Source of the DNA: a virus
Taxonomy: Duplodnaviria; Heunggongvirae; Uroviricota; Caudoviricetes
Reading direction: 5' to 3' (one strand)
Length of the DNA stretch: 64,000 bases
Virus record (IMG/VR): IMGVR_UViG_3300035494_000066
Part shown: positions 50,176 to 54,131 of the stretch, in pieces
Layout: each line of letters starts with the position of its first letter
How positions within the stretch are numbered: position 1 is the first letter of the stretch
Made by a program: the position numbers and the translations under genes
The notes under the pieces: generated by a model
The model's database searches: none
The model's input: the letters and a program-made list of their open reading frames with translations, nothing else
Told to the model about the DNA's origin: nothing

Positions 50176-50240
50176 CAGGATAGTATTCATTGGATTTGCG
50201 TATGAGGCAAAGATATGAATTGTTTGCTGTAACTATCCTA
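50176..50240 (-). ncRNA. Y-like RNA copy 1, carrying an anticodon stem-loop (CAU)
   Basis: AGGATAG-TT-ACAGCAA...TTTGC-CTCATAC-GCAAA...CTATCCTG. Confidence 0.7.
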
Positions 50241-50262
50241 AAAGTGGTGCTCGCAAGCAAGC

Positions 50263-50283
50263 AAAAAGCATCCAAAGGATGCT
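50263..50283 (-). terminator. Terminator-like hairpin inside the tRNA array
   Basis: AGCATCC-TTT-GGATGCT followed by TTTT. Confidence 0.5.
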
Positions 50284-50302
50284 AGTGTAGCACTTAAGCT
50301 AC

Positions 50303-50361
50303 CGGGGTAGCGGTTTCTTTAATAGTATGATAAGAAATTAAAGTGTGCTGCAACTACCCTA
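50303..50361 (-). ncRNA. Y-like RNA copy 2
   Basis: AGGGTAG-TT-GCAGCAC...CTACCCCG; inner stem CTTTAAT/ATTAAAG, loop contains TCATAC. Confidence 0.65.
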
Positions 50362-50364
50362 AAT

Positions 50365-50440
50365 TGGAGCGTCTAAGGGGACTCGAACCCCTACCTAGAG
50401 GGTGGAAACCTCGTATGCTGCCGTTAAACACCATAGACGC
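50365..50440 (-). tRNA. tRNA-Gly(TCC)
   Basis: Cloverleaf, loop TTTCCAC, U73, CCA. Confidence 0.9.
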
Positions 50441-50453
50441 ATTAACCTAAAAT

Positions 50454-50531
50454 TGGTCGGAACAGCAGGATTCGAACCTGCGACCCTCTGGTCCCAAACC
50501 AGATGCGCTAACCAGACTGCGCTATGTTCCG
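50454..50531 (-). tRNA. tRNA-Pro(TGG)
   Basis: CGGAACA acceptor, loop TTTGGGA, CCA. Confidence 0.95.
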
Positions 50532-50537
50532 ATAAAA

Positions 50538-50602
50538 CAGGATGGTATCGTACTAGTTTGATTAAGAGTCAAATGTATGATTGGGTTGCTGTAACCATCC
50601 TA
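50538..50602 (-). ncRNA. Y-like RNA copy 3, carrying an anticodon stem-loop (CUU, Lys-like)
   Basis: AGGATGG-TT-ACAGCAA...TTTGA-CTCTTAA-TCAAA...CCATCCTG. Confidence 0.7.
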
Positions 50603-50606
50603 AATT

Positions 50607-50681
50607 TGGAGCAGCATACCGGGCTCGAACCGGTCCTTTAACGTTGGCAACGTTATGTGCTACCACTAACACCAATGCTGC
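50607..50681 (-). tRNA. tRNA-Gly(GCC)
   Basis: TAACG-TTGCCAA-CGTTA, U73, CCA. Confidence 0.92.
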
Positions 50682-50690
50682 AGTAAAACT

Positions 50691-50766
50691 TGGTGCTGGA
50701 AGCAGGAATCGAACCCGCGACATCTTCATTACAAGTGAAGCGCTCTACCTACTGAGCTATTCTAGC
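50691..50766 (-). tRNA. tRNA-Thr(TGT)
   Basis: CTTCA-CTTGTAA-TGAAG, CCA. Confidence 0.93.
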
Positions 50767-50771
50767 AAATT

Positions 50772-50856
50772 TGGTGCGGAAGGAGGGACTCGAACCCTCA
50801 CGCCTCTCGGCATCAGTTTCTAAGACTGACATGACTACCAATTCCAACACTTCCGC
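50772..50856 (-). tRNA. tRNA-Leu(TAG)
   Basis: TCAGT-CTTAGAA-ACTGA, long variable arm, CCA. Confidence 0.92.
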
Positions 50857-50864
50857 ATGTAAAG

Positions 50865-50922
50865 CAGGGTAACTTTCTTTTTATGCCAATATAAAAGTTT
50901 TATAGTTGCTGCAATTACCCTT
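50865..50922 (-). ncRNA. Y-like RNA copy 4
   Basis: AGGGTAA-TT-GCAGCAA...TTACCCTG; near-identical to 52011-52068. Confidence 0.65.
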
Positions 50923-50926
50923 AAAG

Positions 50927-51642: not shown

Positions 51643-51647
51643 TAATT

Positions 51648-51721
51648 TGGTAGCGGGCCTAGGAGTTGAACCTAGCTTTCGAGGTTATGAGCCTCGCGTG
51701 ACACCCGTTCACTTACCCGCG
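51648..51721 (-). tRNA. tRNA-Met(CAT), initiator-like
   Basis: CGAGG-CTCATAA-CCTCG, C1:U72 mismatch, CCA. Confidence 0.88.
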
Positions 51722-51732
51722 TTAAAAAAATA

Positions 51733-51852
51733 CAGGATGAAATATTATTGCCTGCTGTTCTACCGTTGAACTAACACATACTATGTATGTGTATAGGATT
51801 CGAACCTATAACCCGCTGGTTGATTTAATATATTGTTGCTGTATTCATCCTA
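51733..51852 (-). ncRNA. YrlA-like RNA (copy 5): motif stem fused to a circularly permuted tRNA elbow
   Basis: AGGATGA-AT-ACAGCAA...T arm ATAGG-TTCGAAT-CCTAT, closed acceptor ACACATAC-ATA-GTATGTGT, D arm GTTC-AACGGTA-GAAC...TCATCCTG. Confidence 0.8.
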
Positions 51853-51951
51853 AAAGCACTATATAAAAATATTCTATTACAAAACACTTTTTTATAGTGC
51901 TTTACAGTTTTTACTGTAACTGTTTATTAAAGAGCGTGTCTAACTTTGTAA

Positions 51952-51979
51952 ATTATACTTTATTTATTTTTTCTGTCAA
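51952..51979 (-). promoter_or_regulatory. sigma70 promoter
   Basis: TTGACA-16-TATAAT upstream of the YrlA-like RNA and tRNA array. Confidence 0.75.
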
Positions 51980-52010
51980 CTAAATCGTTAACTTTTTGGT
52001 TCTATTAAAG

Positions 52011-52068
52011 CAGGGTAACTTTCTTTTCATGCCAAATATAAAAGTTTATAGTTGCTGCAATTACCCTT
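52011..52068 (-). ncRNA. Y-like RNA copy 6
   Basis: AGGGTAA-TT-GCAGCAA...TTACCCTG; near-duplicate of copy 4; own promoter. Confidence 0.65.
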
Positions 52069-52086
52069 AAACCTTATTATGTATGT

Positions 52087-52114
52087 AGTATATATTCTTT
52101 TTTACTGCTGTCAA
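52087..52114 (-). promoter_or_regulatory. sigma70 promoter
   Basis: TTGACA-16-TATACT, ending about 18 nt upstream of copy 6. Confidence 0.75.
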
Positions 52115-52146
52115 CTAGTTTTTATTTTTTCTAGCTAACTTAAATT

Positions 52147-52264
52147 TGGCGGCGCGTTTAGGATTCGAACCTAAACCACTCTCTTAACAGGAGAATAATG
52201 GGTTGCTGAAACTACTCTTATACAGAGTAGACTTATTAGTGTGCTACCATTACACCAACGCGCC
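52147..52264 (-). tRNA. tRNA-Asn(GTT) with a 44-nt insert (52196-52239, motif copy 7) between the D arm and anticodon arm
   Basis: Acceptor GGCGCGT/ACGCGCC, G73, CCA, D arm, TTCTC-CTGTTAA-GAGAG, T arm; insert contains CTACTCT-GTATA-AGAGTAG-TT-TCAGCAA. Confidence 0.8.
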
Positions 52265-52272
52265 ATGTGTTT

Positions 52273-52300
52273 ATTATATGCTCTACAGTGTAGCTGTCAA
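52273..52300 (-). promoter_or_regulatory. sigma70 promoter
   Basis: TTGACA-16-TATAAT; predicted start a few nt before the tRNA-Asn 5' end. Confidence 0.78.
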
Positions 52301-52303
52301 CTA

Positions 52304-52528
52304 TTATTTGTTAAACATTTCTCTGTAAAACTCGTTATCAACGTAACCACACCAATTTCCTTTGACAAAAATGCAAACTTCGCCAGTTGGGTGATTGTCG
52401 TCGAACTCTATGTCGGAAATTTTACAATTAAATTTCTTAGCAACAAATGTCCGCTCTTGCAGAAATTCATCGCCATGGTGATCATTAAACATCTCAGTGT
52501 AGTGTCGAATGTCGTCATTGATACTCAT
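52304..52528 (-). CDS. Small hypothetical late protein
   Basis: MSINDDIRHYTEM; TAAATA at 52604. Confidence 0.55.
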   Translation of the reverse strand: MSINDDIRHYTEMFNDHHGDEFLQERTFVAKKFNCKISDIEFDDNHPTGEVCIFVKGNWCGYVDNEFYREMFNK

Positions 52529-52666
52529 TGTAAATTTACCTTGTATAGCACTCTAAAACGCTTGCGTGTGCAATGTACTAGTATAGAACAGCATGTGCTA
52601 CACTATTTATTATCACGCTACATACAAGCGTTTTGGAGTGCTATGCATATGCATAGCACTTTGCTC

Positions 52667-54079
52667 CTACCAGTTGTATCGATCTTTCATCACAGCATCT
52701 TTTACAATGTTGATCGGAGTAAAGCTCTCGACATTTACTGACAAGATGCTTTTCATTAGAGCTGGACTAAATCCAGACACTAAGCATGCACCTTCTTTTG
52801 TGAACTCAACCGGAGTGTTACGTCCGTAGTCGTTGAGATTCCAATATACTAGTTTAGGAGCAGTGTAGCCTGCTTGAGTAAACCGTTTAGTAATGTCTTT
52901 GTTAACACCTCGCCCGCGAGTTGACTGATCAAACTGCATGTCACTGAAGATAATCAGAAACTCTGGCATATCTTCTTGCGGAACATTGTTCTTCACAGCA
53001 GTGTCTAAGATCAACCGATATGCTTTCTCGAGGTCGGTGTTCATCCCCCATGGGGCTTGCATAATGCTATTAAACGCCGATTTTAGAGACATTCCGCTAA
53101 CATCGCCAAATGTTGGGTTGCTATGGAATGTTAGGTACATGTCCTTGAATGCAGACTGGTTACGCTGTGCACAGTACAAGCCTAGTGACACTGCGACATC
53201 CATGCATGTCATTGACATACCACCTGCAGGGCAACCCATTGAGCCGGATACGTCGATCATTGGCAAAAACGAACGCCCGTTTTCGATCCAGTTCGGTAGC
53301 GCATTCCATTGAGCTTCTGCAACATCAGAGTCGCCGTAACGAATTGATCGAAGAATATCGTACGGATACACTGCAGCTGCGTTAATCTTAGCAGTTCCGT
53401 CGTTCTTTACCAGTGACTCGCGATACTTAGCGTAACGTTGTTCGTCGTTGCGAGAAAACGCTTTTTGGTACCGAGCAGCAGCTACAGACGGAACGTGATT
53501 GTAGTCAATCTCACTCCACTTTCTTGCACACATGTCTTGCTCGACTACAGTTGACAGTGATGCAAGCATTTTGCGATACTCACGAGGAGTAAGTCCCATG
53601 TGTGTGCGTAGTTTAGTTGCTAGTGCTTTTTTGGCAGACTTTTCACGTGGAGCCCACTTAGCTGCTAGACCGTTACCGTTACGAAGCTCTGCGCTATACA
53701 TCTCTAGTGCTTCGTGTTCAATCGGTGTTCCTACGAATGCAAGCAAGTCGTCGAATCGGCCTAGTTCTGGAATTTTAGCTAAAACGCGCCGTGCGTTTAC
53801 AAAGTCTGCATTAGCAAACCATTTCATCATATCGCGGAACAGCTTTCGCTCACCCATTCCTTCGCGGGCGTCGCGAGCATATAATGCAACTCGGACAGCA
53901 AGGTCTAGATCTTCGGAAACTGCTCGTTGGAACAGCGGAACGATGTCCTTACCGCGTGATGCACCTACTGCAAAAAACAAGTCGACAACTGAATTCAGTG
54001 AAGACTTTTTAATTTTTGCTCCGTTAAGGGTGGTAGTTTTATTGGATTCTTTTTTGAGGCCTTTAACTAGTGTATTCAT
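52667..54079 (-). CDS. DUF2828-family TROVE-like/vWA protein (Ro60-like candidate)
   Basis: YARDAREGMGER, GRFDDL, LAAKWAPRE, VPSVA, YPYDI, QWNAL, MIDVSGSM (MIDAS), TFHSNP, WGMNTD, IFSDMQFD, VYWNL, VSGFSP. Confidence 0.82.
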   Translation of the reverse strand: MNTLVKGLKKESNKTTTLNGAKIKKSSLNSVVDLFFAVGASRGKDIVPLFQRAVSEDLDLAVRVALYARDAREGMGERKLFRDMMKWFANADFVNARRVLAKIPELGRFDDLLAFVGTPIEHEALEMYSAELRNGNGLAAKWAPREKSAKKALATKLRTHMGLTPREYRKMLASLSTVVEQDMCARKWSEIDYNHVPSVAAARYQKAFSRNDEQRYAKYRESLVKNDGTAKINAAAVYPYDILRSIRYGDSDVAEAQWNALPNWIENGRSFLPMIDVSGSMGCPAGGMSMTCMDVAVSLGLYCAQRNQSAFKDMYLTFHSNPTFGDVSGMSLKSAFNSIMQAPWGMNTDLEKAYRLILDTAVKNNVPQEDMPEFLIIFSDMQFDQSTRGRGVNKDITKRFTQAGYTAPKLVYWNLNDYGRNTPVEFTKEGACLVSGFSPALMKSILSVNVESFTPINIVKDAVMKDRYNW

Positions 54080-54089
54080 TGATAATCTC

Positions 54090-54131
54090 CAGAATGATTT
54101 AAATTGAGTTATTAAGTGCTGAACTCATTCT
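54090..54131 (-). promoter_or_regulatory. Motif copy 8 in the 5' UTR of the TROVE-like gene, abutting its SD
   Basis: AGAATGA-GT-TCAGCAC...TCATTCTG-GAGA-TTATCA-ATG. Confidence 0.75.

Follow-up and report, generated by a model that had tools for sequence, protein, structure and literature searches.

The IMG/VR virus record IMGVR_UViG_3300035494_000066 (Caudoviricetes) contains, in the stretch of 64,000 nucleotides (nt) that was analysed and is referred to below as the window, a gene for a 470-amino-acid protein, P0001 (52667..54079, minus strand), and, less than 4 kb from it and on the same strand, eight RNA elements that share one motif. We consider it likely that gene and elements together constitute a phage version of the Ro60/Y RNA ribonucleoprotein (RNP) in which tRNA-derived cargo is exchangeable. 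The fold of the protein, the structure and covariation of the RNAs, the co-occurrence of gene and motif and the classes of cargo were each established by computation. The original prediction had proposed a new RNP system made of a TROVE-like protein and Y-like RNAs. The motif was not found in Rfam or in the literature searched, but the system is a divergent form of Ro60/Y RNA rather than a wholly new kind.

P0001 matched the Pfam families DUF2828 and DUF7788 and PHROG 850 ("RNA-binding protein"); NCBIfam returned no match to it. A helical-repeat ring region is followed by a vWA domain with a MIDAS (metal ion-dependent adhesion site), and the residues of the latter (D276, S278, S280, T348 and D380, pattern DxSxS...T...D) are invariant in an alignment of 46 homologs (A1). 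An AlphaFold model of the protein was obtained with a predicted local distance difference test (pLDDT) score of 84.6 and a predicted template modelling (pTM) score of 0.82. The Foldseek search of this model against PDB bore out the expected kinship with Ro60: the top 13 rows were all Ro60/TROVE proteins (E 5e-10 to 5e-6, template modelling score ~0.6), among them Xenopus, human and Deinococcus Ro60 and the protein of Thermus phage phiLo. In VIA-align, Ro60/TROVE structures scored Z 13.4-18.5 over 369-408 residues (best match: Z 18.5, root-mean-square deviation 4.5 A, 407 residues), and proteins with a vWA domain only, the next unrelated class, reached at most Z 10.2. The ring of helical repeats, the vWA domain and the MIDAS that define the Ro60 fold are thus all present over the full length. 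A phmmer search against PDB sequences produced a match to S21 only, which was judged to be due to chance. The TROVE-like label holds for the fold but not for the Pfam family: judged from the model, P0001 has the fold of Ro60, but its sequence has diverged so much that it no longer falls within the TROVE family.

Homologs of P0001 are encoded in 710 of 50,697 phage records, including Felix O1-like, KVP40-like and Listeria P100-like phages, Staphylococcus and Campylobacter phages, mycobacteriophages of cluster L and jumbo phages, and metagenomes contributed more than 6,300 clusters of the family at 50% identity. Comparison of the gene neighbourhoods of two homologs revealed no common partner gene. 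In one record (G008:C1:114281-116775, the source of locus L140) the homologous gene is found in two open pieces ~1.1 kb apart, possibly as a result of an intron or a homing-endonuclease insertion.

The pattern AGRRTRR-NNN-CAGCA has ten matches in the window, with 0.14 expected from shuffled sequences, and eight of the ten lie at 50225-54131, all on the minus strand. The eight copies that had been described beside the gene, with the stems listed for them, were therefore confirmed, and a scan of the whole genome (302,518 bp, a giant phage) found no copy beyond these eight, its second tRNA array included. In each copy, three variable nucleotides separate the 5' strand from CAGCA, and the complementary 3' strand, located 27 to 104 nt downstream, is followed by G. 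The stems are fully Watson-Crick paired in seven of the eight copies, the exception being copy 2 with an A.C mismatch at the first pair; minimum-free-energy folding likewise produced the stem in seven copies and left the first pair of copy 2 open. A covariance model, R1, was trained on 18 small modules, with copy 8 outside the training set. In the window R1 found this untrained copy and otherwise nothing new at E <1.

Copies 1-4 are small modules on the minus strand. Copy 1 (50176..50239; stem AGGATAG/CTATCCT; R1 59.5 bits, z -4.1) contains a 5-bp stem with the 7-nt loop CUCAUAC, which is anticodon-like (CAU). Copy 2 (50303..50360; AGGGTAG/CTACCCC; 49.5 bits) begins 4 nt after tRNA-Gly(UCC). 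Copy 3 (50538..50601; AGGATGG/CCATCCT; 65 bits) again presents a 5-bp stem and a 7-nt loop, CUCUUAA (anticodon-like CUU), and is inserted between two tRNAs, starting 5 nt after tRNA-Gly(GCC) and ending 6 nt before tRNA-Pro. Copy 4 (50865..50921; AGGGTAA/TTACCCT; 63.4 bits) starts 5 nt after tRNA-Ser(UGA). The claim that copies 1-4 begin 4-5 nt after a CCA end is accordingly correct for copies 2-4, which follow tRNAs called by ARAGORN, but the CCA preceding copy 1 belongs to an unassigned 58-nt element and not to any recognised tRNA. This element (50245-50302, minus strand, between copies 2 and 1) has three short hairpins, the CCA end and a fold z of -3.6; its middle hairpin with a U-run resembles a terminator, and neither ARAGORN nor Rfam called a tRNA in it.

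The remaining copies, also on the minus strand, are more diverse. Copy 5 (51733..51851; stem AGGATGA/TCATCCT; fold z -3.2) is of the YrlA type: the stem encloses a T arm, an acceptor-like hairpin and a D arm, i.e., a permuted tRNA elbow, and the copy aligns to the full Rfam YrlA model at 32.3 bits (gathering score 69). Copy 6 (52011..52067; AGGGTAA/TTACCCT; R1 62 bits) is a small module and a near duplicate of copy 4, from which it differs at about three positions; copy 4 lies as a spacer among the tRNAs and copy 6 is served by a promoter of its own, and their similarity points to a recent duplication. Copy 7 is a module (52204-52230) within a tRNA-like gene (52147..52264) and is circularly permuted, CTACTCT-GTATA-AGAGTAG-TTT-CAGCA, with the 3' strand first and a GUAUA loop closing the stem. 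Its host has an acceptor stem, a D arm followed by a 44-nt insert, an anticodon loop CUGUUAA (GUU), a T arm and CCA. The cloverleaf was recognised by folding and by the Rfam tRNA model RF00005, the latter at 44.8 bits (cut-off 29) and with 57 nt inserted; ARAGORN does not call this gene. Copy 8 (54090..54131; AGAATGA/TCATTCT; linker GTT, then CAGCA; R1 25.6 bits, E 0.0011) is located in the 5' untranslated region (UTR) of the P0001 gene, where its 3' G is the first base of the Shine-Dalgarno sequence GGAG, with the ATG 11 nt past the stem.

The module was then studied in 80 IMG/VR viral loci that contain homologous genes. A mechanical scan for any 7-bp stem, 3 nt, CAGCA and a partner strand within 170 nt returned 283 matches on the gene strand, compared with 55 on the opposite one, with 29 scrambled cores used as the control giving mostly 20-60 matches and 89 at the highest. 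When the 3' G was required as well, 228 matches remained on the gene strand against six on the other. The 211 unique modules from these loci have 73 different stems, with pair 1 being A-U in 174, pair 2 G-C in 199 and pair 5 U-A in 196, and with all four Watson-Crick types present at pairs 6 and 7. The consensus is AGG(A/U)UNN-NNN-CAGCA, flanked by a U-rich 5' side and by G-U-U on the 3' side. R1 retrieved 151 matches at E <= 0.001 in the 80 loci, every one of them on the gene strand. In an alignment of 136 distinct sequences fitted to the R1 model (A3), the outer helix is 99.9% paired, compensatory changes occur in six of its seven pairs, and the inner hairpin is compensated as well; the covariation score was 0.565, compared with 0.134 in shuffles and at most 0.09 with slid partners. 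A MAFFT alignment (A2) that was not fitted by hand shows the same helix and covariation.

At least one module was present on the gene strand in 77 of the 80 homolog loci, so that the expected association of the module with the gene was upheld, always on one strand. The reverse test gave a similar picture. A pattern scan of IMG/VR for the module yielded 120 loci, 118 of them new; the gene was within the stored piece in 35 of the 118, always on the strand of the module, and for ten further loci followed up as whole records it was found elsewhere in eight. R1 had no match in three complete tRNA-array phages without a homolog (Aeromonas TSW001, Salmonella CF-SP2 and Bacillus Thurquoise).

Individual phages illustrate how the arrangement varies. 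The closest relative, L207 (66% identity), has the layout of the window, with a 5' UTR copy and downstream copies. In Salmonella phage BPS17W1, a member of the Felix O1-like phages to which the nucleotide search pointed first, the gene lies directly upstream of a tRNA array. Four elements in this array follow the design of the module with a different stem (AGACCNN...NNGGTCT-G), and one of the four has a permuted tRNA elbow. Mycobacteriophage Lumos (cluster L), whose gene is annotated as "Ro-like RNA binding protein" by SEA-PHAGES, has three modules with UGGACNN stems directly after the gene and only one tRNA nearby; one of the modules carries a tRNA elbow (YrlA 39.3 bits) and another an anticodon-like loop, CUGCUAA. 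Listeria phage AG20 has three tandem modules behind a promoter, ~70 nt upstream of the gene, and an RtcB-type ligase gene 1.2 kb downstream of it. Two more non-coding stretches behind consensus promoters are found upstream of the AG20 gene (L205:2004-2340 and 2424-3070).

Modular cargo made of tRNA parts, as envisaged by the original prediction, was found across phages in the form of anticodon loops, T arms, whole tRNAs and grafted modules. The small modules include 32 hairpins that combine a 7-nt loop with a stem of at least 4 bp, and 22 of these read CU-NNN-AA, the shape of an anticodon loop, with UUU, UGU, UCU, CAU, GUU and others as triplets; window copies 1 (CAU) and 3 (CUU) are in this class. 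The larger modules contain a canonical T arm in 35 of 100 cases and a whole tRNA in two of 100. The design of copy 7, a permuted module grafted into a tRNA after the D arm, recurs in L037, L154, L165 and L199, and the loop of the grafted form always starts with the conserved G. The permuted tRNA-like domain of YrlA is present in the window in copy 5 only and is absent from copies 1-4, 6 and 8; Rfam YrlA (RF02553) did not match the seven other window copies, and its gathering score was reached by no copy, the related modules scoring 30.8 and 39.3 bits. If tRNAs and two tRNA-Sec matches below the cut-off in the Felix locus are set aside, the sub-threshold YrlA matches were the only Rfam results that seemed meaningful. 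Other weak Rfam matches (plastid UTR families, microRNA families, sX4, Dictyostelium class I and tmRNA) fell on tRNAs or AT-rich hairpins and were taken as chance. A separate class of cargo, 143-188 nt long and without a T arm, was seen at L053:5485-5649 and 11 similar loci (alignment A4), usually 100-500 nt upstream of the Ro-like gene; its features are strongly conserved blocks, e.g., TTGAAGGT and AAGCAGTCAACAAC, and a covarying inner hairpin, and it does not occur in the window.

The position of copy 8 is common. Of the 77 loci, 50 have a module whose end lies 10-30 nt ahead of the start codon, and the Shine-Dalgarno sequence follows 0-20 nt after the 3' G of these 5' UTR modules. This suggests that the protein autoregulates its translation through the 5' UTR copy, which is the simplest reading because a 54-kDa protein bound at copy 8 would cover the ribosome-binding site.

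All genes of the region are on the minus strand, in the upstream-to-downstream order YqeY-like gene, Ro-like gene, 74-amino-acid open reading frame and tRNA array. The array (50079..51721; ARAGORN and Rfam) comprises ten tRNA genes, has copies 1-4 embedded in it and includes an HNH endonuclease gene (51205-51522; Pfam HNH). Four promoter-like sequences of the sigma70 type with 16-bp spacers, likewise on the minus strand, were found. Two of them, with TTGACA and TATAAT, agree with the consensus at 12 of 12 positions and precede the tagged tRNA of copy 7 (52273..52300) and the unit of leader, copy 5 and tRNA-Met (51952..51979). The two others agree at 11 of 12 positions and precede copy 6 (TTGACA-16-TATACT, 52087..52114) and copy 8 with the protein gene (TTGACA-16-TACAAT, 54144..54171). 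The distance to the RNA is ~8-20 nt for copies 7, 6 and 8 and ~100 nt for copy 5, with a structured leader in between; the statement that copies 5-7 follow sigma70 promoters therefore applies directly to copies 6 and 7 and, for copy 5, only at that distance. The leader (51852-51945, minus strand, between the promoter at 51979-51952 and copy 5) forms an AT-rich hairpin of ~50 nt with a fold z of -4.5.

Directly upstream of the Ro-like gene lies a YqeY/GatB-like gene (54176-54565, minus strand; PHROG "tRNA amidotransferase"), and a YqeY/GatB-like annotation is also found 3.5 kb downstream of the homolog in AG20. Further along, the window encodes a tryptophan-halogenase-family flavoprotein (55104-57292, minus strand, E 3e-80) adjoining a methyltransferase-like gene; cargo of this kind is unusual in a phage, and it could be connected with the modification of nucleotides or tRNA. 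A link to RtcB-dependent RNA repair, as in Salmonella and Listeria phage AG20, was considered and found not to be general, RtcB not being detected in the genome of the window (estimated to be 85% complete). Metatranscriptome contigs of a relative with ~96-97% identity (runs X7-X9) span the gene and parts of the array, and such contigs cannot prove transcription or RNA ends. In the X7 and X9 contigs the match ends exactly at the 3' end of copy 1 (50176) and different sequence follows; in this strain the array appears to have been rearranged at the module boundary.

That the protein is Ro-like, and that Y RNAs might accompany it, has been remarked on before for two phages. In a PhageMaP preprint, gp130 of Felixounavirus Bas63 is described as Ro60-like and encoded upstream of tRNAs, is found to counter the Ppl defence, and certain annotated tRNA genes are suggested as candidates for the Y RNAs, with no RNA motif identified (10.1101/2024.10.10.617714). 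From its genus and gene position, which correspond to those in Felix O1-like BPS17W1, gp130 is most likely a homolog of P0001. In Listeria phage CKA15, HHpred showed CKA15_055 to be Rsr-like, and the protein was found in virions; the 2 kb upstream of its gene contain three non-coding regions with extremely high transcription, Y RNAs being one possibility offered for them, again with no RNA motif identified (PMC12282133). Over the module region and the gene start the sequences of CKA15 and AG20 are identical, and on this evidence CKA15_055 is a homolog of the family as well. The only one of its hot regions for which coordinates are given, 26,236-26,727, the most transcribed, maps to positions 2489-2980 of the AG20 locus, in the second of the two non-coding stretches mentioned above; there is no CAGCA module there. 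Our searches of Rfam and of the literature (DUF2828, Ro-like, Bas63 Ro60 and anticodon decoys) found no description of the CAGCA module. What appears to be new is the docking motif and its multiplicity, together with the anticodon-loop forms, the tagged tRNAs and the copy in the 5' UTR.

Several observations weigh against a Ro60/Y RNA-like particle. By sequence, P0001 stands outside the TROVE family: Pfam TROVE (PF05731) did not match it at E <= 10, vWA_Ro60 (PF25045) reached 13.1 bits against a cut-off of 27.7, and the family profile meets phiLo TROVE at E 0.029 only and around the MIDAS motif only. The module lacks the GGCGAAUGC/CGAA signature of known Y RNAs, with copy 5 alone having GAAUAC at that place, and Rfam YrlA touches only copies with tRNA elbows, at 31-39 bits against 69; that the motif differs from the Y RNA consensus had been noted at the outset. 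No R1 match was found in three of the 80 loci (L044, L048 and L067, fragments 2-19% complete), in L206 over +/-8 kb around the gene, or in Vibrio phage KVP40, where no canonical module is present near the gene and the best R1 score is 13 bits. The coordinates given for CKA15 do not tie its module region to any hot region (PMC12282133). Expression of gp130 alone, whether from a plasmid or by T7 itself, protected T7 against Ppl (10.1101/2024.10.10.617714), and its anti-Ppl activity may therefore not need phage RNAs. Binding of the module by the protein is suggested by their co-occurrence and by analogy, and the 5' UTR copy could merely stabilise the mRNA or protect its 5' end. As for KVP40, the 5' UTR of its homolog contains GACAUU-UUA-CAGCA...AAUGUC (L204:5930-5985), with a 6-bp stem that would enclose the Shine-Dalgarno sequence and start codon, and this phage may carry a variant stem around its start codon.

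The action of gp130 without phage RNAs would also fit a different view, namely that the elements are structured RNAs of tRNA arrays (processing or spacer signals, stabilisers or riboregulators) serving another factor, such as host RNase P, E or Z, Hfq, ProQ, the ribosome or another phage protein, and are linked to the gene only through a shared tRNA module. The exact placement of copies 2-4 between tRNAs, the abundance of tRNAs in related loci and the variable neighbours of the Ro-like gene agree with this. We nevertheless think it unlikely, since the three tRNA-array phages without the gene, and the second tRNA array of this very genome, are devoid of the module, and the modules of Lumos directly follow the gene with a single tRNA nearby. 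Unless there is a link to the protein, it is also hard to see why 50 of 77 loci should have a copy in the 5' UTR of its gene, and an invariant unpaired CAGCA next to conserved pairs 1, 2 and 5 resembles a specific protein site.

The system might also be an ordinary Rsr/YrlA pair, i.e., a diverged Ro60 ortholog with one YrlA RNA (copy 5, which aligns along the whole YrlA model), the other copies being degenerate, decaying and functionless. YrlA RNAs are known beside Ro60 in phages, mycobacteriophages included (PMC4201824), and the cluster L homolog bears its Ro-like annotation. This seems improbable to us: copies that are not YrlA form the conserved majority (151 small-module matches in 80 loci, with a compensated inner hairpin), the anticodon-loop cargo is non-random, the YrlA gathering score is never reached, the docking motif is unlike the YrlA consensus, and the survey of Chen et al. 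covered only TROVE-annotated genomes (PMC4201824). Least of all do we expect a repeat that acts at the DNA level without RNA function, as a homing-endonuclease target, a recombination site or a miniature mobile element. The HNH gene inside the array, here and in related phages, and the near identity of copies 4 and 6 could be cited for it, but the modules are confined to a single strand (151 to 0), keep their pairing by compensatory changes as the sequence drifts, differ in cargo from copy to copy, have dedicated promoters and occupy fixed positions relative to tRNA ends and the start codon.

On the Ro60/Y RNA-like reading, the eight RNA elements would be the Y-like partners of P0001. The presumed docking module consists of a U-rich 5' flank, a 7-bp helix, on the 5' side three unpaired nucleotides and the invariant unpaired CAGCA(A), and a G(U) after the 3' strand, with pairs 1, 2 and 5 of the helix conserved (A-U, G-C and U-A) and pairs 6 and 7 free to vary with compensation. 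The far end of the RNA can be exchanged, being an anticodon stem-loop look-alike, a YrlA-like permuted elbow or a plain hairpin, and in copy 7 a whole tRNA bears the module as an extra arm. Most copies serve as array spacers and would be released by the enzymes that trim neighbouring tRNAs, and the other copies have strong promoters to themselves. Surplus protein would probably stop its own translation at the 5' UTR copy, which makes up the 5' end of its mRNA and touches the ribosome-binding site.

Such particles most likely serve to present tRNA-like RNAs, or to protect them, in the course of an infection. The RNAs would be decoys or tethers for tRNA-directed host nucleases and repair enzymes, or the particles would take part in RNA quality control. 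A more specific version, which we put forward only tentatively and regard as less likely to be right than wrong, is that the ring displays and protects tRNA fragments, so that docked anticodon stem-loops, elbows and tagged tRNAs decoy or trap host defence nucleases and sensors directed at tRNA. If this were true, the choice of anticodons (Lys UUU, Arg UCU, Thr UGU, Met CAU and others) would depend in each phage on the defences that it encounters, and hundreds of phage genera would possess a modular anti-defence system based on RNA. A search of the PARIS paper for mention of Thr or Asn tRNA targets gave nothing. One probable member of the family is reported to counter a bacterial defence, and another is reported from virions and encoded beside the most transcribed regions of its genome. 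A defined covarying module makes the Y RNA guess testable with regard to which RNAs bind, which nucleotides are key and where the RNAs end. It also lets annotators label hundreds of unannotated "spacers" in phage tRNA arrays, and it widens the concept of Y RNAs to interchangeable cargoes on one docking stem, bare anticodon-loop mimics and tRNAs with a docking arm.

Among known systems, the Rsr/YrlA RNPs of Salmonella Typhimurium and Mycobacterium smegmatis (RF02553; PMC4201824) offer close parallels in design. In general, Ro60 binds the stem of a Y RNA whose other end mimics tRNA or tethers PNPase, and Chen et al. reported YrlA RNAs beside Ro60 in more than 250 bacteria and phages, mycobacteriophages among them, in a survey limited to genomes annotated with a TROVE protein (PMC4201824). 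As in Rsr/YrlA, the window has a ring-plus-vWA protein encoded beside small RNAs, the stem presumed to dock is made by pairing of the RNA ends and has an asymmetric 5'-side loop, and copy 5 has a permuted tRNA-like domain (T arm, acceptor-like hairpin and D arm). Unlike Rsr, the protein of the window is outside Pfam TROVE, and docking involves a 7-bp stem with CAGCA instead of a GGCGAAUGC/CGAA strand. There are many RNAs per genome, eight in this case, whose cargo varies and includes bare anticodon stem-loops and whole tRNAs, and they are embedded in tRNA arrays, with one of them in the 5' UTR of the protein's own gene.

Among phage systems, phiRo60 of phiLo (PDB 9KOP and 9L5Y; PMC12135203) is likewise a Ro60-fold protein with adjacent Y-like RNAs, Yrl1 and Yrl2, and it is one of the best structural matches of P0001 (Z 18.1, Foldseek E 5e-10). 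It differs in belonging to the TROVE family and in that its two RNAs, picked by a CGAA motif, are not tRNA-array spacers; moreover, its RNA binding and its complex with PNPase were shown experimentally (PMC12135203), whereas the pairing of protein and RNA in the window is inferred from computation. Bas63 gp130 and CKA15_055, like P0001, are Ro60/Rsr-like and encoded beside a tRNA region; compared with the RNAs considered in those papers, the RNA partners in the window are mostly unannotated spacers with one defined module. The Rsr-Yrn1-PNPase particle of Deinococcus radiodurans (RYPER), in which the Y RNA stem sits on the ring and the distal domain tethers the enzyme, provides the working model, with the difference that the distal domains of the window RNAs resemble parts of tRNA rather than a PNPase-binding loop.

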